From an uncultured Bacteroidia bacterium (GTDB lineage: Bacteria; Bacteroidota; Bacteroidia; JACCXN01), in assembly GCA_937995645.1 (NCBI GenBank), contig CALKJP010000019.1, forward strand, positions 1-40,944: DNA of 40,944 nt, read 5' to 3'. The notes beneath the pieces were generated by a model. The model saw only the letters and a program-made list of their open reading frames with translations, had not been told where the DNA came from and did no database searches. Made by a program: the position numbers and the translations under genes. Below are positions 1,945-19,344 of the stretch, piece by piece. Each line of letters begins with the position of its first letter. Position 1 is the stretch's first letter.

Positions 1945-2703
1945 TTATTCGTAGTAATAAACACGAATTATGGCGGCATCCTGAAGAAAATCAATTTTAG
2001 TAATGGAGATGCGGTGTATTTTTAATCCTGTTCTGTTTTTTAAATCGGCTATTAATATATCTCTTTTTTCGGGCTGAATAAGTTCAATATTTTCGTAAGT
2101 AATAAGTTTACTGTACTCACGTTTCATTAAAATATTACCATCTAATGCATACACGCTTAATATAATTACTCCGTATATAGCAGCTTGTTCGTAGTATTCT
2201 AACTTAATGGCTCCTATCAATCCAATTGCAATTACTACAAAAAGATAAGTCATATCTTTTGTAGAAATATCTTCGGTGCGATAACGTAGCATAGAGAAAA
2301 TAGCAAATAAGCCAAAAGCTGCACCCATTGATATTTTTATATGATTGAGCAAATAGGTAAGCAGAAAAACAACCATATTAAAAAGGAAGAAAGTAAACAT
2401 AAAATCTTTGTTACCATAATTGGGCAGATAAATTAATCGAAGAATTACTAATAAAGCCAGAATATTTAATGCCATACTGATGAAAAAATTTTTATCAACT
2501 CGAATATCTTCTTTCATTTCATCTCTCTTCTTCTTTTTCTTCTTATCTTTTTCTGCATCTTTAAATTCTGTATTTTCTTCAAAATAGCTTTCTATAGATG
2601 TATTATCATTTTGTGCTAATAGAAATGAATTTGTGTCTGCTTTAACAGGGCTAAAGAATAAGCCGAGAAGCACTATTAAAATTGAGATTATAAACTTATA
2701 CAT
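1945..2703 (-). CDS. DUF4956 family membrane protein with N-terminal signal-like and charged extension
   Basis: GAAFGLFAIFSMLRYRTEDISTKDMTYLF and C-terminal ITYENIELIQPEKRDILIADLKNRTGL motifs; several TM segments; adjacent to a VTC gene. Confidence 0.85.
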   Translation of the reverse strand: MYKFIISILIVLLGLFFSPVKADTNSFLLAQNDNTSIESYFEENTEFKDAEKDKKKKKKRDEMKEDIRVDKNFFISMALNILALLVILRLIYLPNYGNKDFMFTFFLFNMVVFLLTYLLNHIKISMGAAFGLFAIFSMLRYRTEDISTKDMTYLFVVIAIGLIGAIKLEYYEQAAIYGVIILSVYALDGNILMKREYSKLITYENIELIQPEKRDILIADLKNRTGLKIHRISITKIDFLQDAAIIRVYYYE

Positions 2704-3439
2704 AGAAATTAGTTTTAACGATTTTTCTTATTTTGGGTTTAAATAAATTTTGTTTTACAGGTTTTAAAAGAGCCATTCCCAGACAATATTTACTGATAAA
2801 TCCTTCTTTAATACGCATACTTTTTAAAACACTTTCGGCTTTGGTTACCACCGGCAAATTATCTTGTTTTATTTCAACAATAGCAATATTTTCTAACGTT
2901 CTGGAAACTGTGTTATCAACAAATGTCAAATTTAAGTCAACTGTTACGCGCTCCGGTGCTTCTTTGTTTACTAAAGTTATGCGATAATATTCGATATTTA
3001 ATGAATTAATAAGCGGTTTGGAAGATTTGTAAAATTGACTGATAAAATTTTCTTCATTGGGTGTAATGATGCCCGGTGTTGCAACATCAATTCTTTTTTT
3101 AATGGTACGGCCTTTATTGGTTTTTAATTTTATTTCCAGAAAATGAATTCCGCTTTCGAGATAACTTCTAAAACGAATTTTAAAACGATTAAGTTTTTTA
3201 TTATGATGGGCTTTGTACAAGTCAAAATCTGGTGTATCAAAATAATAGGATTTGTATGCGTTTATTCTAACAGCATTTATCTCAAGCACTCTGTAATAGG
3301 ATTTAATTTCTACTAACCAAGTTTCTAATTGCTTAAGAGTAAGCATAAATTTTTTATCTGTGCGACTGAGCAATTTTACATTGTCCATTTCGCTCAGAGA
3401 GATAGGCTCAAACTGCTGGATGATACGTTGAACTGTCAA
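2696..3439 (-). CDS. VTC domain (polyphosphate polymerase-like, CYTH/TTM fold) protein
   Basis: RTDKKF, SYYFDTPDF, RFKIRFRSY, FLEIKLK, ERVTVD, IVEIK, SKYCLG. TTG start overlaps the upstream TGA. Confidence 0.88.
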   Translation of the reverse strand: MTVQRIIQQFEPISLSEMDNVKLLSRTDKKFMLTLKQLETWLVEIKSYYRVLEINAVRINAYKSYYFDTPDFDLYKAHHNKKLNRFKIRFRSYLESGIHFLEIKLKTNKGRTIKKRIDVATPGIITPNEENFISQFYKSSKPLINSLNIEYYRITLVNKEAPERVTVDLNLTFVDNTVSRTLENIAIVEIKQDNLPVVTKAESVLKSMRIKEGFISKYCLGMALLKPVKQNLFKPKIRKIVKTNFYV

Positions 3440-4002
3440 GGATAAAATTCGTATTCGTACTTTTTGGTTGAAATTAATTTATTGTCGGCATCGTAGGTTT
3501 TCTTTAATGTTCGTAAGCCTTTTGAATCATAATCGTAAGTTGATTTTTCAATCAGCTTTCCCGATCCATCAAAAACCTGCTCTCCTTTTTTTTCACCCGA
3601 ACCGGTATAAGTATATTTTATTTTTTTAAGTAAATTATTTTTGTTATCATAAATAAGCTCTTCGATTATAAGTTTAGCGGCTCCATATTTATATTTATGA
3701 ATTGTTTTAACTTCTCCGTTTTCGTTGTAAATAGTTTCTGATACAATTTCTCCGGTTTTATTGTACTCAAAATCTTTTTTTCGTTTAATTTTTCCATCGT
3801 TATTTCTAACTTCTTCCGAAAGTATATTTCCGTCTTTATTAAACTCTCGTAATTCTAAAACCGTTGATTTTTCGGTAGAATTATCTACAATAATTTCCTT
3901 ATACGTTTTTATATGATATTTTTTTACATCCTTTTTCTTTTGTGCAAAAATTATTATCGGAATTAAAAGCAAAACAGATACTATGTAAAATATGAGCTTC
4001 AT
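3436..4002 (-). CDS. Exported Lys-rich protein with five 26-aa YD/RHS-like beta-hairpin repeats
   Basis: Signal peptide (..PIIIFA|Q); repeats such as EYNKTGEIVSETIYNENGEVKTIHKY and DYDSKGLRTLKKTYDADNKLISTKKY. Confidence 0.75.
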   Translation of the reverse strand: MKLIFYIVSVLLLIPIIIFAQKKKDVKKYHIKTYKEIIVDNSTEKSTVLELREFNKDGNILSEEVRNNDGKIKRKKDFEYNKTGEIVSETIYNENGEVKTIHKYKYGAAKLIIEELIYDNKNNLLKKIKYTYTGSGEKKGEQVFDGSGKLIEKSTYDYDSKGLRTLKKTYDADNKLISTKKYEYEFYP

Positions 4003-4730
4003 TAATCGGCTATTATTAAATCAGGAATTTCGTACACTTTATTATTTTCTGTAATATTTACTTCGATGATAACAGGTACTTTGCCGGATGTTTGCATGGT
4101 GGTATCATCTGATAATGCATACACTTTATATTTCCCTTTTCGTAAATTATTTAACTGAAATTCTCCATTTAATCCGGTTCTTATTCGTTTGCTTTCGCCA
4201 ATATCTCTGCCATATACAAAAAAAATATCTTCATCGGGTTTATAGTATTGATCTACAACTACTGTGTAAGATGCAGCATATTTTTTATAAAACAATTTTC
4301 CTTTAATTGATGATGATCCGTTATTATCTGCTTCTTCATAAATGTAAAAATCATCAATTGTTATTTCTTGATTGTTTTTAGCGATTTCAACTTCTTTAAC
4401 AATGGCAATACTATTATCATCCGAAAGTGTTTTAGGGTCTAAACTATAGGCGTAAATTTTATACTTTCCTTTACGTAAATATCTGAATTCAAATTCTCCC
4501 TTAGGTCCTGTACGTATATCATTGTCCGGCATATTTTTATCACCATACACTATGTAAATGCGCTTATCAGCCCCTACATCATCAAAAGCATAAGGAACCT
4601 CTGGCGAATGAAAATTTTTAACATATAAAGTACCTTTAATGGTAGCTCCGCCCCCCTCACCCGGCGCTTTTTTGCAGGAAAAAATTAAAATTGAAATTAG
4701 AAAAAAGAAAATTATTATTAATTTATTCAT
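4002..4730 (-). CDS. Lipoprotein with two tandem beta-sandwich (carboxypeptidase-regulatory/prealbumin-like) domains
   Basis: Lipobox IFSC; duplicated IRTGxxGEFxxxxLRKGKYKxYAxS motif; TAATG overlap with the next gene. Confidence 0.75.
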   Translation of the reverse strand: MNKLIIIFFFLISILIFSCKKAPGEGGGATIKGTLYVKNFHSPEVPYAFDDVGADKRIYIVYGDKNMPDNDIRTGPKGEFEFRYLRKGKYKIYAYSLDPKTLSDDNSIAIVKEVEIAKNNQEITIDDFYIYEEADNNGSSSIKGKLFYKKYAASYTVVVDQYYKPDEDIFFVYGRDIGESKRIRTGLNGEFQLNNLRKGKYKVYALSDDTTMQTSGKVPVIIEVNITENNKVYEIPDLIIAD

Positions 4731-4749
4731 TAATTTATTGTTAATTTAA

Positions 4750-4757
4750 CAAAGATA
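4750..4757 (-). promoter_or_regulatory. -7 promoter element (TATCTTTG) for the lipoprotein-VTC-DUF4956 operon
   Basis: caaagata on the + strand, 19 nt upstream of the ATG at 4730. Confidence 0.6.
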
Positions 4758-4881
4758 AAAAATTAATAAGGCATTAGCTAAACGCTCGACTATTTTGCTA
4801 AAATGTTGTTTTTTAGGAGCTTTTGTATTAACTTTATCGTAACATACTCTTATATAAAGAATTTGTTTTATATAATACTTT

Positions 4882-7422
4882 ATGAAAAAAAAACTACTTC
4901 TGCTAATTCTTACAATTAGTCTTTCTTTCTATTATTTAAGTGCTCAGGTTGTTATTAATGAATATTCTTGTTCAAATATAAATACTATTGCCGATAGTTT
5001 TGGAGAGTATGAAGATTGGATTGAATTATACAATTCCGGTTCATCAGCCGTAAATCTGCAGGGATATTACTTGAGTGATAATCAAAACAAGCCAGACAAA
5101 TGGACTTTTCCGAATATAAGTATAAATGCCGGTGGCCGATTAATGGTTTTTTGTTCCGGTCGAAATACGGTTACCGGCTCTGCGGTACATACCAACTTTA
5201 AATTAACGCAAACTAAACCCGAACGCATTATATTCTCAAGCCCTACATTACAGGAATTAGAAAATATTTTGTTAGTTCCAACTCAAAAAAATCATTCACG
5301 CGGGAGAACAAATGATGGCGCAGCAACATGGAGTTTATTTACAACACCTACTCCCAATGCTGCCAATGCTAACCCAAAGCAAGAATACGCTACTAAACCG
5401 GTTTTAAGTGTTCAAGCAGGGTTTTATTCCAGCGCACAAACAGTAAGTATTACAAGTCCTGATGCCAATGTAACCATACGATATACTTTAGACGGAACAG
5501 AACCTACGGCTGCTTCTACTGCATATACTGCGCCTTTAAATATAACGCAAACAACCGTTGTAAAAGCAAAAGCATTTAGTGCTAATCCTGATATACCACC
5601 CAGTTTTACCGAAACTAATACCTATTTTATAAATGTTACGCATTCGTTTGCTGTTGTATCCGTTAGCGGAACAAATTTAAACTTACTCTTTGGCGGCAAT
5701 CAAACAGAAAGGGAAGGCTGGTTTGAATATTTCAATGACAGTTTAATTTTTAAATCGGAAGCATCCGGCATGTTTAACAAACATGGAAATGACTCATGGG
5801 CATATCAGCAAAGAGGAGTTGATTTTGTAGCACGCGATCAGTTTGGTGATAATTATGGCATTTTACATAAACTATTTAAAACCAAAAACAGAAAAGAATT
5901 TCAACGATTAATATTAAAAGCTGCTGCAAACGATAACTATCCTTTTGAAACCGGCGGAGCACATATACGAGATTCGTACGTACATCATTTATCACAAACA
6001 GGAAAATTAAATTTAGATGAACGCAGCTGGGCGCCTGTTATACTATACATGAATGGTCAATACTGGGGGGTTTATGATATTCGCGAAAAAGTAGATGATC
6101 ATGATTTTACAGATCACTACTATAATCAAGGGGAATTTGACTTGCAATTTTTAAAAACATGGGGCGCCACATGGTCGGAATATGGAGGAATCCAAGCTCA
6201 AACAGATTGGAATACATTAAGAAACTTTATTACCTCTAACAACATGGCCATACAAGCAAATTTTGACCATGTGGACAGTTTATACAACTGGAAAAGTTTG
6301 GTAGATTATTTTTGCCTAAATTCTTACGTAGTATGTATGGATTGGCTCAACTGGAATACCGCATGGTGGAGAGGCCTAAATCCTAATGGCGACAAAAAGA
6401 AATGGAGATACGTTTTGTGGGATATGGATGCCACATTTGGTCATTATATAAACTATACAGGAATACCCGACCAATCAGCCAATGCCGACCCTTGTAATGT
6501 TGAAAATTTGCCTAATCCCGGAGGGCAAGGTCATACCCAAATTTTAAACGCATTAATGGCCAATCCAACATTTAAGCAATATTACATTAGCCGATACATC
6601 GATTTAGGGAATACCGTATTTTCCTGCACCAATATGCTAAATTTATTGGATAGCATGATAGCTGTAATTGCTCCGGAAATGCCGGGGCAAATAGCAAAAT
6701 GGGGTGGCAGTATGGCGGGATGGCAAAACAATGTACAACAGTTACGAAATTTTATTCAGCAACGTTGTGTTGCTATTTCGCAAGGGATGAACGATTGTTA
6801 CCAAACCACCGGACCTTATGTAGTAAAATTCAATGTTTCACCACCAAATTCAGGAACTATAAAAATCAACTCCATAACACCAACCAATTATGTATTTACA
6901 GGCAATTATTATGGCAACATTCAAACGCTATTGAGAGCTAATCCTTCTCCGGGGTATATTTTTGACAAATGGTTTATTGCAAACAATTCCATTTTACCCT
7001 CCATTTATGATAGCAGTGCTTATGTTACATTTTCACAAGCAGATAGTGTAGTTGCTATTTTTAAATTAATTCAAACTCCGCAAGACAGCATCCCAACACC
7101 TGACCCTGACACAACAGACACAACGGTAGTAACACCCGGAGGGCCGGGTGCAGGAATTTTTGTACCAAATGCATTTTCTCCCAATGGCGATGGAAATAAT
7201 GATATATTAAAGCTTTATGGTGCAAAAATTCAAAGCATAGAATTTTATGTTTATAACCGATGGGGGCAACGCGTATTTGAATCGAAAGAATTAAGTAAAA
7301 CATGGGATGGAACATTTAACGGAGAATTGTTGAATGCCGGGGTTTATCCTTACCTGCTCAGAGTTGTTTTTGAAAATGGCGATAATCTGGAGAAGCGAGG
7401 TAATATAACATTAGTAAGATAA
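4882..7422 (+). CDS. Secreted CotH kinase family protein: lamin-tail domain, Fn3-associated domain, CotH kinase, T9SS type B C-terminal sorting domain
   Basis: Signal peptide; VVINE...DWIELYN (LTD); IRYTLDGTEPT (Fn3-associated/CHB_HEX_C); LYMNGQYWGVYDIREK, DWLNWN, KWRYVLWDMDATFG (CotH); FVPNAFSPNGDGNND...YNRWG...WDG...GNITLVR (type B CTD). Confidence 0.9.
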   Translation: MKKKLLLLILTISLSFYYLSAQVVINEYSCSNINTIADSFGEYEDWIELYNSGSSAVNLQGYYLSDNQNKPDKWTFPNISINAGGRLMVFCSGRNTVTGSAVHTNFKLTQTKPERIIFSSPTLQELENILLVPTQKNHSRGRTNDGAATWSLFTTPTPNAANANPKQEYATKPVLSVQAGFYSSAQTVSITSPDANVTIRYTLDGTEPTAASTAYTAPLNITQTTVVKAKAFSANPDIPPSFTETNTYFINVTHSFAVVSVSGTNLNLLFGGNQTEREGWFEYFNDSLIFKSEASGMFNKHGNDSWAYQQRGVDFVARDQFGDNYGILHKLFKTKNRKEFQRLILKAAANDNYPFETGGAHIRDSYVHHLSQTGKLNLDERSWAPVILYMNGQYWGVYDIREKVDDHDFTDHYYNQGEFDLQFLKTWGATWSEYGGIQAQTDWNTLRNFITSNNMAIQANFDHVDSLYNWKSLVDYFCLNSYVVCMDWLNWNTAWWRGLNPNGDKKKWRYVLWDMDATFGHYINYTGIPDQSANADPCNVENLPNPGGQGHTQILNALMANPTFKQYYISRYIDLGNTVFSCTNMLNLLDSMIAVIAPEMPGQIAKWGGSMAGWQNNVQQLRNFIQQRCVAISQGMNDCYQTTGPYVVKFNVSPPNSGTIKINSITPTNYVFTGNYYGNIQTLLRANPSPGYIFDKWFIANNSILPSIYDSSAYVTFSQADSVVAIFKLIQTPQDSIPTPDPDTTDTTVVTPGGPGAGIFVPNAFSPNGDGNNDILKLYGAKIQSIEFYVYNRWGQRVFESKELSKTWDGTFNGELLNAGVYPYLLRVVFENGDNLEKRGNITLVR

Positions 7423-7431
7423 GGAGGAAGA

Positions 7432-8451
7432 ATGAAAAAAATTATCCCACTTATTTTACTTTTCGCACCTGCATTTTCCATTGCGCAGGACATACATTTT
7501 TCGCAATATTACGAAACCCCATTAATAATTAATCCTGCATCTGCCGGATTTTATGACGGCAGACAAAGAGCTGTTTTAAATTATAAAAATCAATGGCAGG
7601 GAATTCCTAATCCATTTGTTACCATGGCAGCATCGTTTGATATGCCATTGTTTGAAAGCAGCAAACGAAATGCGCATTTAGGAATGGGAATTAACGCTTA
7701 CCGCGATCAGGCAGGCGATGCAAAATTGGGAACTACTCAGATAAACCTATCCATTTCAGGAATTGTAAAATTAAATCCGCAAAATAAAATTTCTGTTGGT
7801 ATGCAAGGAGGCGGAGCGCAGCGCTCCGCCAATTTCAGCAATTTGGAATGGGGGAATCAGTTTAATGGAAGCGGGTTTAATACCGGCATTGCTTCAAATG
7901 AAATGAATACACTCAGTTCATTTTTATATGGTGATTTATCAGCCGGTATCTTTTACGAATTTAGTAATACCGAAAATTCATTTGCAGGTAAAGATGTTTT
8001 TAAGTTTAATTTTGGAATATCTGGTTTTCATTTAAATAAACCTGATTTGAATTTTTATAATGGTGCAAGCGACAAATTACATTCTCGATATGTAGTTCAC
8101 TCTTCTTTACGATACGACATTCCTGAAACGCGATTATCTATTGTACCAATGGCCATGTACGCCATGCAAGGGCCATCGAGTGAATTGCTGGCAAGCATGA
8201 TTTTTAGAATCAGCCTTTCAGAGTCTGGGAAAATAACCACCATATTTAAAGAATCTTCTTTATCATTTGGTTGTGGCATAAGAAGCGGAGATGCCATTAT
8301 TCCGCAAGTAATGCTTGAATTTCATGATTATAGTTTTGGCGTTTCTTACGATGTTAAAGCAGGTTCAAAAGCCTATGGTGTTAATGGAGGGCTTGAAGTA
8401 TTTTTACGCTATACCAACTGGAAAGGACCTCTTTATAAAGGAAAAAAATAA
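7432..8451 (+). CDS. PorP/SprF family type IX secretion system membrane protein
   Basis: QDIHFSQYYETPLIINPASAG, NYKNQW, GVSYDV, GGLEVFLRY; directly follows a type-B-CTD gene. Confidence 0.92.
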   Translation: MKKIIPLILLFAPAFSIAQDIHFSQYYETPLIINPASAGFYDGRQRAVLNYKNQWQGIPNPFVTMAASFDMPLFESSKRNAHLGMGINAYRDQAGDAKLGTTQINLSISGIVKLNPQNKISVGMQGGGAQRSANFSNLEWGNQFNGSGFNTGIASNEMNTLSSFLYGDLSAGIFYEFSNTENSFAGKDVFKFNFGISGFHLNKPDLNFYNGASDKLHSRYVVHSSLRYDIPETRLSIVPMAMYAMQGPSSELLASMIFRISLSESGKITTIFKESSLSFGCGIRSGDAIIPQVMLEFHDYSFGVSYDVKAGSKAYGVNGGLEVFLRYTNWKGPLYKGKK

Positions 8452-8533: not shown

Positions 8534-9841
8534 TTATTTGATTCCATATTTTTCTTTGTATTTTTCGTAAAGCTGTTTTTGATGATTATCCAAATCCAGT
8601 TTTTTACCGCGAATAAAAGCATACTCCAGATTATTTGATTTCATATCTAAGGCATCACCCGTAGAAACAAAAAGTGTAGCATGTTTGCCCACTTCAATAC
8701 TTCCAACCATAGTGTCAATCCCCAAAATTTTAGCTGCATTTAATGTAATGGAAGCCAAGGCTTCTTCTTTGCTTAAACCATAAGTTACGGCAGTTCCTGC
8801 ATTAAACGGCAGATTGCGTGTACCCATTACTTCCATATCTCCATCGTGATTTAAACAAAATAGCACGCCTGCTTTTTGCAACAAATATGGTAATTGAAAA
8901 GGTAAATCTATCGGGTCATCAGTTCTTTCTGGCAAACTGTGTACGCGATTTAAAATAACAGCTATTTTATTTTCCTTAAGTGCATCGGTAACCAGCCAAG
9001 CATCGGTTCCGCCAACAATTACAACATGCGCAATATCAAATTCTTTTTTAAAATGAATTACTTCTAAAATTTCTTTTGCTGTATTGGCTGAAACGTACAA
9101 TTGCTTGGTTCCGTCAAAAAGACCTTTCATTGCATCGAACTTCAGATTTTTTTCTTTTACCGTTTTAAGTTCTGAATAGGCTTTTGCTTCTTTAAAAAAA
9201 CTTTTGATTTCCTGAACCGCTTTTTCCTGTTCATTATTTTTTTCAGAATGTCCTGGTTCTGCCCACCAGCCGGTATTTCTATACATACGAGGCCAGTTCA
9301 TGTGTATCCCGTCATCTGCTTTTAAGGTAGCGTCTTCCCAATTCCAGCCTTCTAATTCCATTACACTTGAAGTTCCGGAAATAACACCTCCTCTTGGTGT
9401 AATTTGCGCTAAGAGCACTCCGTTAAAACGCAGTGTTGGTGATATTTTAGAATCGGTATTATACGCAATTTGAGTACGAACATTTGGATTATAATTTCCA
9501 ACTTCGGCATAATCTAAGGTAGCTCTTACCGCATCTATTTCGCGTAATCCTAAAGTGGTGTTGGGTGCAATAAACCCTGGATAAATATGTTTTCCTTCTA
9601 AATTGATTACTTCATCAAAACCTGCCGGAGCACTACCTTCTCCAACCGATGTTATAACACCATTTTTAAAACCAACATAAGCATTACTTAACACTTTTCC
9701 ATTACCTACATGAATTGTGGCGTTGGTAAGCAACACTGACTTTTCCTGAATAGATGCAGGCTTTTGAGCAAAAACGTTGATTAAACAAAGTATAAAATAT
9801 AATGTACAAAGGGTAATTATTTTAAAGCTTTTCATATTCAT
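8534..9841 (-). CDS. Exported amidohydrolase-family protein, probably lacking the canonical metal ligands
   Basis: NATIHVGNG, GKHIYPGFI, ITLNAAKILG, GSIEVGKHA. APNTT sits at the usual DxHxH position. Likely start is 9841 or 9835 rather than 9877. Confidence 0.85.
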   Translation of the reverse strand: MNMKSFKIITLCTLYFILCLINVFAQKPASIQEKSVLLTNATIHVGNGKVLSNAYVGFKNGVITSVGEGSAPAGFDEVINLEGKHIYPGFIAPNTTLGLREIDAVRATLDYAEVGNYNPNVRTQIAYNTDSKISPTLRFNGVLLAQITPRGGVISGTSSVMELEGWNWEDATLKADDGIHMNWPRMYRNTGWWAEPGHSEKNNEQEKAVQEIKSFFKEAKAYSELKTVKEKNLKFDAMKGLFDGTKQLYVSANTAKEILEVIHFKKEFDIAHVVIVGGTDAWLVTDALKENKIAVILNRVHSLPERTDDPIDLPFQLPYLLQKAGVLFCLNHDGDMEVMGTRNLPFNAGTAVTYGLSKEEALASITLNAAKILGIDTMVGSIEVGKHATLFVSTGDALDMKSNNLEYAFIRGKKLDLDNHQKQLYEKYKEKYGIK

Positions 9842-9887
9842 TATTATAAAACTTGATTCTAAAAAAACATATTTCAATTATTATTTT

Positions 9888-9915
9888 AAACATTAAGAAA
9901 TTAAGATACATTAAG
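9888..9915 (+). repeat. Short TTAAG-triplet intergenic repeat, copy 1
   Basis: AAACATTAAGAAATTAAGATACATTAAG; a similar copy is at 15122-15148. Confidence 0.5.
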
Positions 9916-9992
9916 GTGAAATTTACCAACTACAAACTATTTTCTTTCTTCAAACTAATGGCTTGTGGCTAATCACCAAATCACTAATTGCA

Positions 9993-12900
9993 TTAATGCA
10001 TGTTTTCTTCTTCACTTCCTTCTTCTCCAATAGTATCGCAATGGAAAAATCTGCGTTTTCGCAATTCAGGCTTAATGGTTTTTTCTCCGGCCTTTTTTGC
10101 TTGTATCATTTTTTGAATAATACGGCTTCTCTCCTGCTCTACTAAAATTCTTTGAAGTGCATCTTTTTCTCTGTCGAAATAGCAAACACCATCAACAAAA
10201 GTTTTTTCCACTTTAGCGTAAATTGAAAGTGGATGATCGCTCCATAAAACCACATCAGCATCTTTTCCAACTTTTATACTACCGGTAAATTTGTCTAAGT
10301 GTAATAGTTTTGCTGGATTTAATGTTACCATTCTTAAAGCGTCTTCTTCGCTCATGCCACCATATTTTAAAGATTTTGCAGCTTCTTGATTCAATCTTCT
10401 TCCCATTTCGGCATCATCTGAATTTATTGCTGTTACAATTCCCATTGCATTCATTAGTGAGGCATTGAACGGAATGGCATCGTTTACTTCGAACTTATAC
10501 GCCCACCAATCTGAAAAAGTAGAACCACCTGCACCATGCTTTTTCATTTTATCGGCAACTTTGTATCCTTCTAAAATATGAGTAAAAGTATTTACGGTAA
10601 AGCCCATACTATCACCAACATGCATCAGCATATTTATTTCTGATTGTACGTAAGAATGGCAAGAAATAAAACGCTTTTTTTCTAATATTTCTACTATTGC
10701 CTCCAGCTCTAAATCTCTGCGAGGCGAGGGTTTAGTAGCTTTAATTTTGGCGGGGAGTTTTGCATATTCTTCCATTTCATTTTTGTATTCTTTTGCACGT
10801 GTAAATGCATCATAATACACTTGTTCAACACCCATTCTGGTTTGAGGGAAACGAATGGTTTCTCTGTCGCCCCAATTAGATTGTTTTACATTTTCGCCTA
10901 ATGCAAATTTTATAAAGCCATCTGTATTTTGAATTTTCATTTGCTCGGGTGCTAAGCCCCAACGTAGTTTTATTAATGCTGATTGTCCGCCAATAGCATT
11001 GGCAGAACCATGCAACAATTGTGCAGCAGTTACACCTCCTGATAGCTGGCGATAAATATTTATGTCTTCACTGTTTATTACATCGCTTATTCTCACTTCT
11101 GCACTATTAGATTGAGTTCCTTCGTTTACTCCTCTGCTTATAGCGATATGCGAATGTTCATCAATTATTCCCGGTGTTAAATGTTTTCCAGTAGCATCAA
11201 TTACTTTTGCGCCAATTGTATCTTTTGCATTAAACGTTCCGATAGCCGCTATTTTTCCATTATTGATTAAAACATCGCTTTTAATTATTCCCTGTTCTTC
11301 AAGTGTCCAAACCGTTGCATTTTTAATTAATATTTTTTCAGCTTTTGGTATTTCGGTATTTCCATAAGCCATAAATGGATACAAGATCTGGCCGATTAGT
11401 GTATCTTTTTTGCTCAGCGAATCTTTTTTTGAATCTGTTTTATAATTTGATTTTTTAATTGCCGACCAATTAATCCATGTTCCATTTGAAAGTTGTCCTT
11501 TACCATCCCATATACTGCTTGTATAGGAAATATTTCCACTTAAACGTACAATACCAGAATCATTCATTTCTTTAACAGGAAAAGCAATGGAGATTAAATT
11601 TTCTTTTCTGGAAATAGTTGCATCTTTTTTAAATGTAGTATCGTTGAGTAATTGAACACTCGCTTTTAAAGCATTTTCTTCTCCACTCACTTTTAATACA
11701 TATACATTACCTGTTCCAATATTTACATCATAATCGCCTCTGATATCAAATGTAACAGCAGGCTGAACGATATATTGTTTCCCCTGAATCCAGTTTTCGT
11801 GAATGGTAAATTTATCGGCAAACAATGAATCATTAGAAATAAAAAAGTTTGCAATCATGCCTGGTTTTAATGCACCAATTTTATTTTCCTGTTTTATTAA
11901 TTGAGCAGGTGTGTATGTTAAAGCCTTTAAAATTTCAGCAGAAGAGATGCCTCTTTCATACGCTTTTTTTAAATTATTCAAAAAGGCATTTTTATCATTT
12001 AATCCATAAGCAGTAATTGCAAATGGCACCTGATTTTTTGCAAGGAAATATAAATTAGATGGCGCCATTTCCCAGTGTTTCATTTGCGATAAATCAACCA
12101 TTTGCGCATCAAACGGGTCTTCCACATCATATACATCCGGATATGTTATTGGAACAATTAATGGAGCTCCTGTAGCTTTTATCTCTGCAATTCGTTGATA
12201 TTCATCTCCACCGCCTTTAATGATATATTGCACTTTAAATTCTTCGGCTATTTTATCGGCTCGTAAAATATTCAATTTATCATTGGCTTCAAAAATTTGA
12301 GGAAATTTCTGAATACGATTCCATTCGTCTAATGACAAATTATATTCTTTAATTTTTCCTTTATTCGTCTTATACCAATCTGCATCAATATACGTTTGAC
12401 GTAACAAGGCAATGCTCCCCATCAATGAAGAAGGGAAACTTTGAGTAGAAGAACCCTTATTAAAGGAATAAAATGCCGCAGCTTCTCCTTCTAAAACCAA
12501 TTCATTTTCTAAGCCTTTGCCTAAAGTAACAAATGCCCCTGTTCCTCTTGCAATTCCATCATGCTGATGTGTAAGTACAGTACCAAATCCTATTTTTCTT
12601 AACTCGTCTGCTTTTTGATCGTTTGGCAAAAATAAACCTGATGCTTTAACATCTGCTTTTATCGCCTGATTCCAGCTTACTGCTCCTGTTGATTTTCTTT
12701 CATATTGTGGATTGGGCGACCACTGTGCAGCTTTAACTTCCGGCATACCATAATCGGAATATAAATCAATAAATGAAGGATAAATATATTTTCCTTTTAA
12801 ATCATATACTACTGCACCTTTAGGTATTTGCACTTTAGCGCCTGCTTGTTCTACTTTACCATCACGAATAATTAAAGTAGCATTTTTAACCAATGTTTGA

Positions 12901-13046
12901 TAATCAATAAATATATTGGCATTGGTAAAAGCATAATAAATTTCTTTACGGCTATCTTTTACACCATTTACAGGAAAGGTTTCCTGAGCAAAAACCTTAA
13001 CACCAATTATTAATATTAGGGTTGCTGTTATAAGACATTTATTCAT
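9993..13046 (-). CDS. Exported double-domain amidohydrolase-family protein
   Basis: Two amidohydrolase modules: N-terminal PSFIDLYSD (degenerate) and C-terminal PGIIDEHSHI, CHSY, FTHILEGY, NSDD, GSIKVGKDADVVLW; signal peptide. Confidence 0.9.
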   Translation of the reverse strand: MNKCLITATLILIIGVKVFAQETFPVNGVKDSRKEIYYAFTNANIFIDYQTLVKNATLIIRDGKVEQAGAKVQIPKGAVVYDLKGKYIYPSFIDLYSDYGMPEVKAAQWSPNPQYERKSTGAVSWNQAIKADVKASGLFLPNDQKADELRKIGFGTVLTHQHDGIARGTGAFVTLGKGLENELVLEGEAAAFYSFNKGSSTQSFPSSLMGSIALLRQTYIDADWYKTNKGKIKEYNLSLDEWNRIQKFPQIFEANDKLNILRADKIAEEFKVQYIIKGGGDEYQRIAEIKATGAPLIVPITYPDVYDVEDPFDAQMVDLSQMKHWEMAPSNLYFLAKNQVPFAITAYGLNDKNAFLNNLKKAYERGISSAEILKALTYTPAQLIKQENKIGALKPGMIANFFISNDSLFADKFTIHENWIQGKQYIVQPAVTFDIRGDYDVNIGTGNVYVLKVSGEENALKASVQLLNDTTFKKDATISRKENLISIAFPVKEMNDSGIVRLSGNISYTSSIWDGKGQLSNGTWINWSAIKKSNYKTDSKKDSLSKKDTLIGQILYPFMAYGNTEIPKAEKILIKNATVWTLEEQGIIKSDVLINNGKIAAIGTFNAKDTIGAKVIDATGKHLTPGIIDEHSHIAISRGVNEGTQSNSAEVRISDVINSEDINIYRQLSGGVTAAQLLHGSANAIGGQSALIKLRWGLAPEQMKIQNTDGFIKFALGENVKQSNWGDRETIRFPQTRMGVEQVYYDAFTRAKEYKNEMEEYAKLPAKIKATKPSPRRDLELEAIVEILEKKRFISCHSYVQSEINMLMHVGDSMGFTVNTFTHILEGYKVADKMKKHGAGGSTFSDWWAYKFEVNDAIPFNASLMNAMGIVTAINSDDAEMGRRLNQEAAKSLKYGGMSEEDALRMVTLNPAKLLHLDKFTGSIKVGKDADVVLWSDHPLSIYAKVEKTFVDGVCYFDREKDALQRILVEQERSRIIQKMIQAKKAGEKTIKPELRKRRFFHCDTIGEEGSEEENMH

Positions 13047-15978: not shown

Positions 15979-16727
15979 ATCAAAAGCAACTGAGTGATAA
16001 TGTAATTAAACAATAGGATAAAAATACTGCTTGAAACTACCGCACGCGTACTTGCTTTACCAATTTCTAAAGCTCCACCTCTAACATAATATCCATGAAA
16101 TGCAGAAATAGAGGTAATTAAAAAGGCGAATACCAGAGTTTTAATAAGAGCATACGTTACATCAAAGGGTCTAAACCCGTATTGAATACCATATATAAAT
16201 TGACTGGGTATTACAACTCCTGACAATGATCCAAACAACCATCCCCCAAATAAACCCTGAAACATGCTTATTATTACTAAAAAAGGATTAATAAAAACCG
16301 CTGCACATATTTTTGGTAAAATTAAAAATTGTGCGGAGTTAATTCCCATAATTTCCAATGCATCTATTTGTTCTGAAATACGCATGGTTCCTAATTCAGA
16401 GGCAATATTTGAACCTATTTTTCCAGCAAAAATTAATGCAAGAATTGTGGGAGCAAATTCTAAAATTACCGTTTGACGCGATGCATATCCTACACTATAC
16501 GAAGGAATTAAAGGACTATCTATATTAGCAGCTGTTTGAATGGTAACCACAGCCCCCATAAATACCGAAATAATTGTAACAATACCTAATGAACCAATTC
16601 CAATATTTTCAACCTCTCGAAAAAACAATTGCCTAAACATTTTCCAGCTTTCCGGCCTGCTGAATGTACGATACATCAACAGATAATATTGTCCCATTAT
16701 TTGTATTTGTCTGGTAATTATGCTCAT
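15975..16727 (-). CDS. mlaE: MlaE family ABC permease
   Basis: GSNIASELGTMRISEQIDALEIMG, GGALEIGKASTRAVV. Confidence 0.92.
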   Translation of the reverse strand: MSIITRQIQIMGQYYLLMYRTFSRPESWKMFRQLFFREVENIGIGSLGIVTIISVFMGAVVTIQTAANIDSPLIPSYSVGYASRQTVILEFAPTILALIFAGKIGSNIASELGTMRISEQIDALEIMGINSAQFLILPKICAAVFINPFLVIISMFQGLFGGWLFGSLSGVVIPSQFIYGIQYGFRPFDVTYALIKTLVFAFLITSISAFHGYYVRGGALEIGKASTRAVVSSSIFILLFNYIITQLLLI

Positions 16728-16819
16728 GTATAAATTTTTGGATAAAATTACGCATTATTGATAAATTTATTGCTTTATATTTCAACTTCGTAAAATCAAA
16801 TTTTTAATTCTTAAATAGA

Positions 16820-16987
16820 ATGACACCATTCAGTAAACCACTACGTATTCTAATTGTTTTAAGTGTTTGTATAACAATAAGCTCATGCTCATTATTTCGC
16901 AAAAAAAATCGTTGTAATGATTGCCCTAAATGGAGTAAAATAGAATACCATGAAAATGGTATTGTTCAATATAAAGTACGTATTTAA
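16820..16987 (+). CDS. Putative 55-aa small lipoprotein with a CxxCP motif (not in the ORF track)
   Basis: MTPFSKPLRILIVLSVCITISSCSLFRKKNRCNDCPKWSKIEYHENGIVQYKVRI*; basic N-region, hydrophobic core, ISSC lipobox. Confidence 0.6.
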   Translation: MTPFSKPLRILIVLSVCITISSCSLFRKKNRCNDCPKWSKIEYHENGIVQYKVRI

Positions 16988-16992
16988 TTTTG
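16962..16992 (+). promoter_or_regulatory. Sigma-A promoter for feoAB (TTG-N20-TAATTTTG)
   Basis: -33 TTG at 16962-16964 and -7 TAATTTTG at 16985-16992, ending 7 nt before the feoA ATG. Confidence 0.55.
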
Positions 16993-16999
16993 CGCGTGT

Positions 17000-17227
17000 A
17001 TGCCTAAATTAAATACGCTTAGAAATGGACAAAAATCCGTTATTACGGATATTTCAGAAAATGATTTATCGCTAAAACTTCTTGATATGGGTTGTATGCC
17101 GGGAGAAGAAATTATAATGATAGGCCAAGCACCTTTGGGCGACCCAATTATGTTTCAATTAGGCGGCTATTTATTAAGTTTACGAAAAGAAGAAGCAGAA
17201 AACATTCAAGTAGAAATAGTTAATTAA
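17000..17227 (+). CDS. feoA: Ferrous iron transport protein A
   Basis: KLLDMGCMPGEEI, APLGDP, LSLRKEEA; upstream of feoB. Confidence 0.95.
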   Translation: MPKLNTLRNGQKSVITDISENDLSLKLLDMGCMPGEEIIMIGQAPLGDPIMFQLGGYLLSLRKEEAENIQVEIVN

Positions 17228-17238
17228 AGCCCAACTCC

Positions 17239-19344
17239 TTGAACGCTGCATCCTCAAAATCGAAAAAGCAATTAAGAAAAATTGCACTGGTTGGAAATCC
17301 CAACAGCGGCAAATCTACCCTTTTTAATTTACTTACAGGATTAAACCAAAAAGTAGGAAATTTTCCGGGTGTTACAGTAGAGAAAAAAACAGGCAAATGC
17401 CAATTAGATAATGAAGAAATAGAAATTATTGATCTACCTGGAACTTACAGCCTGCATCCTAAATCAATAGATGAAGAAGTTACTCTATCGGTAGTTTGCG
17501 ATCCTGCAAATAAATACTATCCGGATATTACAATTATTGTAGCTGATGCATCTAACTTAAAACGTAATTTATTATTATGTACACAAGTTATAGATTTAAA
17601 GCGACCATGTATTTTGGCGCTAAATATGATGGACCTGGTACGTGAAAATAAAATTGAAATAAATACAGCTTTACTTTCTCAAGAATTAGGCATACCGATT
17701 ATTGCCATGAATGCCCGAAATAACGAAGGAATTAAAGAGTTAAAAAATCTATTGAAAGAAAATATTGCTGCTCCTAATAAATGTTTTTTTGATGTTGCAA
17801 CACTAAATATTAATTTTTTACAAGAATTAAAAGGTTTAATTAAGGTTGAAAACAATTATCTGGCACATTTAATTTTTCTACATCACCATGCAATTCCTTC
17901 TATTGAACACAACAACGAAATAACAGAAAGAATTAAACTTGTTAGCAAAAACGAAAAAATAGATAAAGGACGTTTACAAGCACAGGAAACCATTATACGC
18001 TATAAAAACATCAATAGCATAATACAAACATGTGTAGTTGATGAGCGCAAAATAAAAGCTGATAAATTAACTCAAAAACTAGATGCCATTCTTACCCATA
18101 AAGTTTGGGGATTTGCATCATTTTTAGCATTGCTATTTTTAATCTTTCAGTTTATCTTCAGTTTTTCTGCCTATCCAATGGAATGGATTGAACAAGGATT
18201 TGCTTTACTATCCGATGCTGTAAAAAATCATTTTCCAAAAGGAGCAGTTAACGATTTAGTTACCGAAGGCATCATTTCAGGATTAGGCGGCATTTTTGTA
18301 TTCATCCCTCAAATAGCATTTTTATTTGCATTTATTGCTATACTGGAAGATACAGGCTATATGGCACGTGTAAGTTTTATACTCGATCGCATTATGCGCA
18401 AATTCGGATTAAACGGCCGTTCAGTAATTCCACTCATCAGCGGTGCTGCCTGTGCCGTACCAGCGGTAATGTCAACACGCACTATTTCTAACTGGAAAGA
18501 ACGCATTATTACCATTTTAGTAATTCCGCTTATAAGTTGCTCTGCACGTTTGCCGGTTTATACACTCATAATTGCATTGGTAATTCCACAAAAAAAACTG
18601 TGGGGATTAATCAATTATCAGGGATTGGTTTTATTTAGCTTATATTTAATCGGATTTAGCGCAGCAATTTTTTCAGCATACATTTTTAAGATGATTTTAA
18701 AAAGTAAGGAGCGCAGCTACTTTATTATGGAAATGCCGGTTTACAGAGCACCACGCTGGGGAACCGTTGTTTTAACAATGATTGAAAAAATAAAAGTATT
18801 TTTGTTTGATGTCGGTAAAGTTATTATTTCCATTTCCATAGTTCTTTGGGTATTATCCTCCTATGCCCCTGGTAATAGATTTGAAAAAATTGAAAAAAAA
18901 TATGAAAATTCAGATAATGCTGAAAATATAATTGCATCCGAAAAACTCGAAGCATCTTATGCAGGAATATTTGGGAAGGCTATTGAACCCGTTATTAAAC
19001 CTCTCGGTTTCGACTGGAAAATAGGCATTGCATTAATTACCTCTTTTGCAGCAAGAGAAGTTTTTGTGGGTACCATGGCAACTATTTACAGCGTTGGTAC
19101 AGATGATGAAAGTAGCCTAAGACAAAAAATGCAGCAGGATAAAAATCAAAATGGCGAGAAAATTTACACACTTGCCACGGGAGTTTCGCTCTTATTGTTC
19201 TATGTATTTGCCATGCAGTGCATGAGTACTATTGCTGTTGTTTATCGCGAAAGCGGGCATTGGAAATGGCCACTCATACAATTTTTATACATGGGCGCTT
19301 TGGCCTATTTTAGCAGTTTAATAGCCTATCAGTTGTTAGCCTGA
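17239..19344 (+). CDS. feoB: Ferrous iron transport protein B
   Basis: GNPNSGKST, VGNFPGVTVE, DLPGTYSL, LNMMD, EDTGYMAR, SCSARLPVY, AREVFV. Confidence 0.97.
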   Translation: MNAASSKSKKQLRKIALVGNPNSGKSTLFNLLTGLNQKVGNFPGVTVEKKTGKCQLDNEEIEIIDLPGTYSLHPKSIDEEVTLSVVCDPANKYYPDITIIVADASNLKRNLLLCTQVIDLKRPCILALNMMDLVRENKIEINTALLSQELGIPIIAMNARNNEGIKELKNLLKENIAAPNKCFFDVATLNINFLQELKGLIKVENNYLAHLIFLHHHAIPSIEHNNEITERIKLVSKNEKIDKGRLQAQETIIRYKNINSIIQTCVVDERKIKADKLTQKLDAILTHKVWGFASFLALLFLIFQFIFSFSAYPMEWIEQGFALLSDAVKNHFPKGAVNDLVTEGIISGLGGIFVFIPQIAFLFAFIAILEDTGYMARVSFILDRIMRKFGLNGRSVIPLISGAACAVPAVMSTRTISNWKERIITILVIPLISCSARLPVYTLIIALVIPQKKLWGLINYQGLVLFSLYLIGFSAAIFSAYIFKMILKSKERSYFIMEMPVYRAPRWGTVVLTMIEKIKVFLFDVGKVIISISIVLWVLSSYAPGNRFEKIEKKYENSDNAENIIASEKLEASYAGIFGKAIEPVIKPLGFDWKIGIALITSFAAREVFVGTMATIYSVGTDDESSLRQKMQQDKNQNGEKIYTLATGVSLLLFYVFAMQCMSTIAVVYRESGHWKWPLIQFLYMGALAYFSSLIAYQLLA

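Follow-up and report, generated by a model that had tools for sequence, protein, structure and literature searches.

Introduction

Eukaryotic VTC complexes make polyphosphate (polyP) on the cytoplasmic face of a membrane and couple its synthesis to passage through a membrane oligomer (PMC9911596), and VTC4 is treated as eukaryotic in several papers (PMC13318637, PMC10657179, 10.1101/2024.08.28.610084). In Gram-positive bacteria, cotH lies with a polyP polymerase gene and a DUF4956 gene beside pel operons, with no assigned function (Whitfield et al., 10.1101/768473). The same trio is SIR_1594-1592 of S. intermedius (10.1101/2024.04.20.589940), and the same three families are co-located in NELoc-2 of C. 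perfringens (PMC11677781). Here we describe a locus from an uncultured Bacteroidia bacterium (contig CALKJP010000019.1, positions 1 to 40,944; this whole stretch of 40,944 nucleotides is called the window) that encodes a VTC-domain protein, a DUF4956 membrane protein, two exported proteins and a secreted CotH-family kinase. The conserved gene set suggests a system built for intracellular polyP synthesis and outward passage. Every genome examined that has VTC also encodes CotH, and the system may be a way of supplying phosphate chemistry to the cell surface.

Set against the yeast Vtc4/Vtc3/Vtc1 complex, the window VTC protein has a homologous tunnel domain with the nine tested residues, and the logic we propose is the same: synthesis coupled to membrane passage. 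The window differs in having neither an SPX sensor nor a fused three-helix Vtc1-type domain; its membrane partner would be a separate DUF4956 protein. The proposed target also differs, being the periplasm or cell surface across two membranes, and the module has extra periplasmic and outer-membrane parts.

The Gram-positive pel trio finds its counterpart in what we call type-2 clusters of the window's relatives, in which DUF4956, VTC and CotH stand beside Wzy_C, GT4 and metallophosphoesterase genes. The type-1 module represented by the window is a diderm edition that adds a lipoprotein, a YD-like protein, a DUF2490 barrel and a CotH delivered by type IX secretion (T9SS), and it has no pel genes. 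The trio of cotH, VTC and DUF4956 is already in print for Gram-positive bacteria; the diderm module with its extra parts would be the new element. In the literature searched, outside subscription journals and supplements, we found no description of the Bacteroidota module and no biochemistry on VTC or DUF4956 proteins of bacteria.

The window CotH shares a homologous kinase domain, with catalytic and metal-binding aspartates kept, with the spore-coat kinase CotH of Bacillus. The Bacillus enzyme uses ATP on CotB and CotG in coat assembly, whereas the window protein is a multidomain T9SS surface protein. Moreover, B. subtilis, which served as one of our control genomes, has CotH with neither VTC nor DUF4956, unlike the window genome. 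As a pair of T9SS type B cargo with PorP/SprF, the window cotH-porP genes are an ordinary member of their class, genus-specific among VTC-linked CotH.

Results

The window locus is one edition of a conserved module

Four overlapping minus-strand genes, transcribed in the order LIPO, REP188, VTC, DUF4956 and followed by the unrelated rbfA, diverge from a plus-strand cotH-porP pair. LIPO and REP188 are our names for the two exported proteins.

4730..4002, minus strand: LIPO lipoprotein, 242 aa, first gene of the operon
4002..3436, minus strand: REP188 exported protein, 188 aa, second gene of the operon
3439..2696, minus strand: VTC-domain protein, 247 aa, TTG start, third gene of the operon
2703..1945, minus strand: DUF4956 membrane protein, 252 aa, fourth gene of the operon
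4731..4881: AT-rich divergent intergenic region, 151 bp, separating the module operon from cotH-porP
4882..7422, plus strand: CotH-family secreted kinase, 846 aa (Pfam and NCBIfam)
7432..8451, plus strand: PorP/SprF-family outer-membrane protein, 339 aa (Pfam and NCBIfam)

Direct reading of the sequence reproduced the six open reading frames, overlaps and spacers (151 bp and 9 nt) given in the initial annotation, and hidden Markov model (HMM) checks with Pfam and NCBIfam agreed with all of its domain calls (VTC, DUF4956, CotH, LTD, CHU_C and PorP_SprF). LIPO and REP188 meet in TAATG, with base 4002 common to both. REP188 and VTC overlap by four bases in TTGA (3439-3436), and the DUF4956 start codon (ATG, 2703-2701) precedes the VTC stop (2698-2696) to give an overlap of eight bases. 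The gap between cotH and porP is 9 nt (7423-7431).

The source genome (G000; 2.35 Mb in 207 contigs, 86% complete) has exactly one VTC, one CotH and one DUF4956 gene, with VTC and CotH side by side. To place this arrangement, we collected, from 15 relatives, 20 stretches that surround a VTC or DUF4956 gene, and in addition the 80 public loci closest to the window VTC, nearly all of the latter from Bacteroidota assemblies. Genes were classified with profiles built in this analysis, loci were counted only where enough flanking DNA was present, and the CotH locus counts use a profile of the kinase domain only. The window order recurs in a genome of the same genus (G001, locus L014), divergent cotH included, and the module order recurs in most of the 100 further loci. 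The arrangement is therefore not a chance neighbourhood.

The recurrent order is [CotH] - LIPO - REP188 - VTC - DUF4956 - DUF2490, and the window's minus-strand operon is one edition of this conserved Bacteroidota envelope module. DUF4956 adjoins VTC in 72/73 of the public loci, and their reading frames overlap in 70 of 74 pairs. DUF2490, REP188 and LIPO are present in 61/76, 59/75 and 54/71 of the public loci, respectively. The initial annotation had counted both exported proteins as parts of the system, and their conservation in the operon bears this out. It also proposed checking the co-occurrence of all six genes across Bacteroidota; PorP lies next to CotH only in the window and G001, and the usual outer-membrane member is DUF2490. 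In 20 of 58 loci, a CotH kinase domain on the strand of VTC ends no more than 2.5 kb upstream of that gene, and 14 of the 34 loci with full flanks have one at most 10 kb from VTC.

Two variant layouts stand beside the common one. In the type-2 clusters (L017:9144-19495, L021, L024 and L028, from G004, G010, G022 and G025), a divergent DUF4956 gene and VTC are followed directly by a membrane-anchored CotH. VTC is directly followed by CotH in all four, and the clusters continue with Wzy_C (O-antigen ligase-like), an 860-aa CotH-like protein, a calcineurin-like metallophosphoesterase and a GT4 glycosyltransferase. A sub-lineage (L064:6668-9494, L068, L080, L089, L109) instead has the order LIPO - DUF2490 - T9SS cargo - REP188 - VTC - DUF4956. 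Its cargo, of 550 aa with a Por_Secre_tail and no CotH domain, is a different secreted protein that stands where other loci have CotH. A Bacteroidota-like VTC-DUF4956 module, its VTC about 46% identical to that of the window, is also present on contigs assigned to Candidatus Methanoperedens, Akkermansia and Hydrocarboniphaga (L062, L067 and L055); these contigs are probably mis-binned or contaminant.

Among longer database proteins, we found fused forms of module members: a VTC-DUF4956 fusion (P0004), a VTC-hydrophobic segment-CotH fusion (P0002) and DUF4956-DUF2490 read-throughs (P0003, and P0005 with 20 member sequences) that keep an internal signal-peptide-like segment. That segment, lying between the two halves, fits a cytoplasmic C-terminus of DUF4956. 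As read from these sequences, the fusion topologies agree with a layout that keeps VTC and the C-terminus of DUF4956 inside and puts the barrel and CotH outside. The searches for fused forms yielded 2 and 3 proteins; that so few turned up is weak evidence.

Genomes with VTC also encode CotH

We then compared gene content at the level of whole genomes. Of 31 relatives, 15 were VTC-positive, and every one of these also had CotH and DUF4956 (15/15). An even sample of the phylum (151 genomes) held 28 VTC-positive genomes, 28/28 with CotH, against an overall CotH frequency of 57/151. Because the two samples share two VTC-positive genomes, they comprise 41 distinct ones, and CotH is present in 41/41. 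Fourteen named control genomes included three with VTC, all three with DUF4956 and CotH; one of them, B. thetaiotaomicron, has VTC, DUF4956, CotH and DUF2490. One unpublished genome (G003) enters the relatives tallies, locus counts, one alignment and local profiles, and the claims hold without it (14/14; REP188 in 10/14).

The initial annotation had stated that bacterial VTC, DUF4956 and CotH genes often co-occur. Read from VTC outward, this stands, for CotH in 41/41 and for DUF4956 in 15/15 genomes; read in reverse it fails, with 29/57 CotH-positive genomes of the phylum sample and 4/19 DUF4956-positive relatives having no VTC. Such one-way dependence suggests a module in the service of CotH, and a CotH that can also work without it.

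The VTC protein keeps the catalytic residues of Vtc4

The window VTC protein matches the Pfam family VTC (PF09359) at 2.6e-25 (89.8 bits, cut-off 23); the sole other Pfam signal is a sub-threshold NUP120_helical_2 match (17.3 bits, cut-off 21.5). A profile of 20 VTC homologues matches the catalytic domain of yeast Vtc4 (3g3q, E 2.8e-11) over the whole domain, profile residues 25-229. Searches of the PDB with single sequences of VTC, DUF4956 and CotH gave no match, and VTC and CotH matched only via profiles.

In the alignment of the profile with 3g3q, K30, R89, R91, K104 and Y151 of the window protein align with Vtc4 K200, R264, R266, K281 and Y359, and R153, E189, S216 and K217 align with R361, E426, S457 and K458. 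Among the 20 homologues, eight of the nine are invariant and Y151 is near-invariant (at least 90%). In a cryo-EM study of yeast VTC, mutating K200, R264, R266, K281, R361, K458, S457 or Y359 lowers polyP, E426 is a metal ligand, and K458 is replaced by Ile or Leu in the inactive Vtc2 and Vtc3 (10.1101/2023.01.27.525886). The window protein thus has, in K217, the equivalent of the lysine that the inactive Vtc2 and Vtc3 lack. We predict that it is a soluble cytoplasmic triphosphate tunnel metalloenzyme (TTM) of the Vtc4 type and a polyP polymerase. Judged by these residues it belongs with the VTC family, but it is without the architecture of the eukaryotic VTC complex and is Vtc4-like at most.

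The source genome also encodes PPK1 and PPX, the ordinary cytoplasmic route of polyP metabolism; PPK2 was not found in this 86% complete genome. Since PPK1 and PPX are present, VTC would form a second, separate route, and a second cytoplasmic role for it becomes less likely.

DUF4956 is a predicted inner-membrane partner

The DUF4956 protein matches PF16316 over the full model (2.5e-50, 171 bits, model positions 1-169 of 169). Its AlphaFold2 (AF2) model (mean predicted local distance difference test score, pLDDT, 80.5) opens with a signal-like helix at the N-terminus, followed by a Lys-rich, disordered linker (residues 22-60); it continues with five helices (71-188) and ends in a beta-alpha-beta-beta domain (196-251). 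Helices 3 and 4 form the conserved core, in which G131 and R140 are invariant and R142 is near-invariant. We predict that the protein is an inner-membrane partner or conduit of VTC. A two-chain complex prediction of VTC with DUF4956 residues 66-252 gave no verdict (score 0.00, mark 0.32) and speaks neither for nor against binding. A DUF4956 profile found no sequence match in the PDB.

Two further features of the family concern length and setting. The proteins of the window (residues 1-70) and G001 have the signal-like helix as an extra, together with a disordered linker that contains a K6 run; most homologues, of about 206-230 aa, are without both. Orphan DUF4956 genes (L118-L121, in G007, G016, G008 and G014) stand alone among housekeeping genes in genomes without a VTC match.

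Exported and outer-membrane parts

LIPO has a lipoprotein-type N-terminus with Cys19 in ..IFSC|KK.. and two weak prealbumin/CarboxypepD_reg-like Pfam matches (residues ~72-106 and ~173-231). The prealbumin-like copy is double in the window protein and single in most relatives. Among the relatives' type-1 loci, 14 of 16 have a member of the family, and in 11 gene pairs LIPO directly precedes DUF2490 even though the module order differs. That LIPO keeps this place despite the change in order suggests a lipoprotein-barrel pair, and we predict that LIPO is a periplasm-facing lipoprotein with beta-sandwich repeats, partner of the DUF2490 barrel.

REP188 is predicted to be periplasmic. It is Lys-rich and has a signal peptide, behind which the protein starts with the conserved basic motif Q-S-K-K-x-V-K-K. 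Its AF2 model (pLDDT 92.7) shows 12 strands arranged as serial beta-hairpins in a single-layer sheet. In Foldseek the model resembled OspA sheets and the shells of Rhs/YD and teneurin proteins (E about 1e-6), but with TM-scores of only 0.11-0.51, and the Atlas neighbours of REP188 are small RHS/YD-repeat clusters of Bacteroidota. NCBIfam TIGR01643 (YD_repeat_2x) reaches 16.5 bits against a cut-off of 15.8, at E 0.0092. No Pfam family matched, and a REP188 profile gave only insignificant matches in the PDB (best E 0.16). Orthologues scoring at least 98 bits were seen in 10 of the 15 relatives with VTC and in none of the 16 without it, and full-length matches are confined to VTC-positive genomes.

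The fifth gene of the module was identified as DUF2490 (PF10677; 3e-25 for L016). DUF2490 is listed elsewhere as a putative porin family, TC 1.B.81, with function unassigned (PMC4827864), and described, in a 2026 preprint, as an outer-membrane beta-barrel family (10.64898/2026.07.29.741452). Against the acidic-sugar porin KdgM, the match was weak and below the cut-off (E 8.7e-4). G000 has three DUF2490 genes, all on contigs other than the window's, and one of them, on contig C120, best fits the module-type profile (141.5 bits, against 41.5 and 32.8). On C120 the module-type DUF2490, ppx and ppk1 share one contig, with the barrel about 11-13 kb away (G000:C120:4709-5275, 16328-17062, 18361-18909).

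CotH and its PorP/SprF

The window CotH consists of a signal peptide, an LTD domain, a CHB_HEX_C_1/Fn3_assoc region, the CotH kinase domain (PF08757, 7.9e-36, 124.6 bits) and a T9SS C-terminal domain (CTD) of type B, the latter called by CHU_C (1.9e-19, 70 bits) and TIGR04131 (5.5e-15, 55.3 bits, cut-off 35). A profile of the kinase domain matches B. cereus CotH (5jd9, E 4.1e-38). Within the domain alignment, D168 (at least 90%) and D195 (invariant) align with the N-F-D and W-D aspartates of CotH. By a constant +4 numbering offset, we infer that they would be the catalytic/metal-binding D228 and D251 of B. subtilis CotH (PMC7821199).

CotH was extracytoplasmic wherever we checked, as judged by a T9SS CTD, a membrane anchor at the N-terminus or a lipoprotein signal. 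CTD types were called with Pfam and NCBIfam for the window and with Pfam for eight neighbouring CotH proteins. A type A CTD (Por_Secre_tail) is carried by module-adjacent CotH in L022, L027, L061, L069 and L074, and weakly in L090 (E 0.0097), while CotH is without a CTD in L063 (lipoprotein-like N-terminus) and in L017 (the membrane-anchored type-2 CotH).

The window PorP is a clear family member (PorP_SprF 6.5e-39; TIGR03519 1.1e-50, 172.8 bits, cut-off 90.55). It adjoins CotH only in the window and in L014 of G001, 2 of 70 CotH/CTD-HMM hits. Cargo with a type B CTD is reported to associate with PorP-like proteins for surface anchorage (PMC9143113). Because the adjacency is limited to these two loci, because other checked CotH are type A or lipoproteins and because type B cargo reportedly pairs with PorP-like proteins, PorP/SprF is the cargo's own partner: a cognate anchor or shuttle outside the conserved VTC module, and not the part of the system that the initial annotation had made it.

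PorP was also considered as the module's outer-membrane channel and dropped: where it is not beside CotH, a PorP homologue is seen only behind porU-porV, 7-9 kb downstream. The surroundings of the module show a related pattern, in that a convergent ispF-porV-porU set directly follows it (downstream of DUF2490) in many loci (L023, L025, L027 and L030; also, for example, L038, L054, L056, L074, L077, L097, L098 and L113). Here porV and porU encode PorV and the C25 peptidase PorU of the T9SS attachment complex, with a PorP homologue 7-9 kb downstream. Either simple synteny or a connection with the handling of T9SS cargo may lie behind this pattern. In the window, the 9 nt that separate cotH from porP, GGAGGAAGA (7423-7431), form a strong motif of the Shine-Dalgarno kind, which is generally uncommon in Bacteroidota.

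The rest of the window

Past porP, on the opposite strand, lie two adjoining amidohydrolase-family genes (8534-13046; 447 and 1017 aa), a pair that is syntenic with G001 (L014:231-4759). The remainder of the window is housekeeping: an hflX-like GTPase, mlaE/ABC genes, feoB and a peptidase U32.

Discussion

The reading we favor, tentatively and at somewhat short of even chances, is that VTC synthesizes polyP and the module exports it. Enzyme activity, transport direction, protein contacts and the link to CotH chemistry are all inferred from gene content, alignments and models. In outline, soluble VTC would, like yeast Vtc4, build polyP from ATP on the inner side of the cytoplasmic membrane and feed the chain into a DUF4956 oligomer, whose five helices would place Arg140 and Arg142 at a predicted cytoplasmic mouth next to a cytoplasmic C-terminal domain. 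In the periplasm, the basic YD-like REP188 may receive or guide the polyanion, and the lipoprotein, together with a DUF2490 barrel (encoded on another contig in G000), could carry it through the outer membrane. At the surface, T9SS-secreted CotH, held by its own PorP/SprF, would act with or on the exported polyP. The predicted locations of the proteins fit the picture of one component per compartment drawn in the initial annotation.

What CotH would do with polyP is the most speculative step. Within this scheme, CotH would most likely draw phosphoryl groups from polyP in a place short of ATP, or fix polyP to surface molecules. The full claim, in which a dedicated trans-envelope line feeds a CotH that uses exported polyP instead of ATP as phosphoryl donor or attaches polyP covalently to surface proteins or glycans, we consider unlikely.

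A number of observations weigh against synthesis and export by the module. The Pfam and segment scans found no SPX domain, no Vtc1-type domain and no hydrophobic segment in the VTC protein. For DUF4956, Foldseek with the model gave no match at E <= 0.001, and a wide VIA-align search returned generic helical bundles, with archaeal virus coat proteins as the best (Z 9.2); no likeness to a Vtc1-type channel was detected in the sequence and fold searches, an absence that excludes no relation. DUF4956 occurs without VTC in 4 of 19 DUF4956-positive relatives, and the orphan genes imply that the family has some VTC-independent role. Likewise, the 29 of 57 CotH-positive genomes in the phylum sample without VTC imply that CotH in general needs no module. 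The loci of the window and G001 themselves are without a DUF2490 barrel; in the window, rbfA follows DUF4956. Mature REP188 is basic in 49/49 homologues (isoelectric point 8.4-9.5), but in a proteome that is AT-rich and Lys-rich this is weak evidence. The fusions are single or few metagenomic gene calls and may be frameshift or gene-calling artefacts. Finally, the 80 database loci are the nearest relatives of one protein and hence kin, not independent samples.

Some of these points also suit a different destination. PolyP may go only to the periplasm or envelope, as a store, cation buffer or matrix polyanion, with CotH linked through a common surface or biofilm programme and having no polyP substrate. 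We consider this reading, which would give bacteria an equivalent of the polyP pool of acidocalcisomes or vacuoles, unlikely. The trio does stand beside exopolysaccharide genes, both in Gram-positive pel operons (10.1101/768473, 10.1101/2024.04.20.589940), and in the type-2 clusters with their Wzy_C, GT4 glycosyltransferase and metallophosphoesterase. The frequent CotH without VTC points the same way, as does the presence of PPK1 and PPX in the genome. However, a VTC gene that implies CotH in 41/41 genomes and shares its operon in 20/58 loci is tied to it more tightly than a shared regulon requires, and the VTC-CotH fusion call P0002 adds to the difficulty.

The VTC protein might instead be no polymerase at all but a tripolyphosphatase, nucleotide cyclase or polyP hydrolase, with DUF4956 and its ACT-like C-terminal domain as a regulated membrane partner in a module that senses or signals. 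The TTM superfamily includes hydrolases and cyclases, the module has neither SPX domain nor Vtc1-type channel, and DUF4956 lives without VTC in four genomes. The authors of the S. intermedius study describe the DUF4956-like protein as four transmembrane segments plus an ACT domain and allow that polyP may remain cytoplasmic (10.1101/2024.04.20.589940). Yet all nine polymerase residues of Vtc4 are kept, including the lysine that separates Vtc4 from Vtc2/3, and the match is to Pfam VTC and not to other TTM families. Three exported or outer-membrane operon partners would also be needless for a cytoplasmic signalling enzyme, and we judge this alternative decidedly unlikely.

It is very improbable that the module runs inward, with the DUF2490 porin, REP188 as binder and DUF4956 importing environmental polyP for a VTC-like enzyme to process in the cytoplasm. 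A layout that runs from a barrel in the outer membrane through a periplasmic and an inner-membrane protein to an enzyme in the cytoplasm would suit uptake too, as would a uniformly basic REP188, and other microbes grow on exogenous polyP (PMC13318637). But the operon holds nothing to energize transport, such as a TonB-dependent receptor or an ATPase, the strict tie to CotH is left unexplained, and Vtc4-type enzymes are known as export-coupled synthases (PMC9911596, 10.1101/2023.01.27.525886). That the cotH-porP pair and the VTC operon are mere neighbours with no functional tie is hardly credible, for although they are divergently transcribed, CotH lies within 10 kb of VTC in only 14/34 full-flank loci and PorP adjacency is confined to one genus, the genome counts (CotH in 41/41 VTC-positive genomes against a background of 57/151), the single VTC and CotH genes side by side in G000 and the same-strand adjacency in 20/58 loci disfavor it.

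The system bears on the function of bacterial VTC domains, on the route that polyP may take to the outside of a bacterium and on the phosphoryl source of extracytoplasmic kinases. The module gives genomic context to four families (DUF4956, DUF2490, the small YD-like protein and the prealbumin-like lipoprotein), and the rule that VTC implies CotH (41/41) is a handle for genetics in tractable relatives. Should VTC make polyP that the module exports and feeds to CotH, bacteria would be able to phosphorylate their own surface or their surroundings independently of ATP. The case would also be the first of a bacterial polyP polymerase akin to eukaryotic VTC, and the first of a polyP exporter in a diderm cell.

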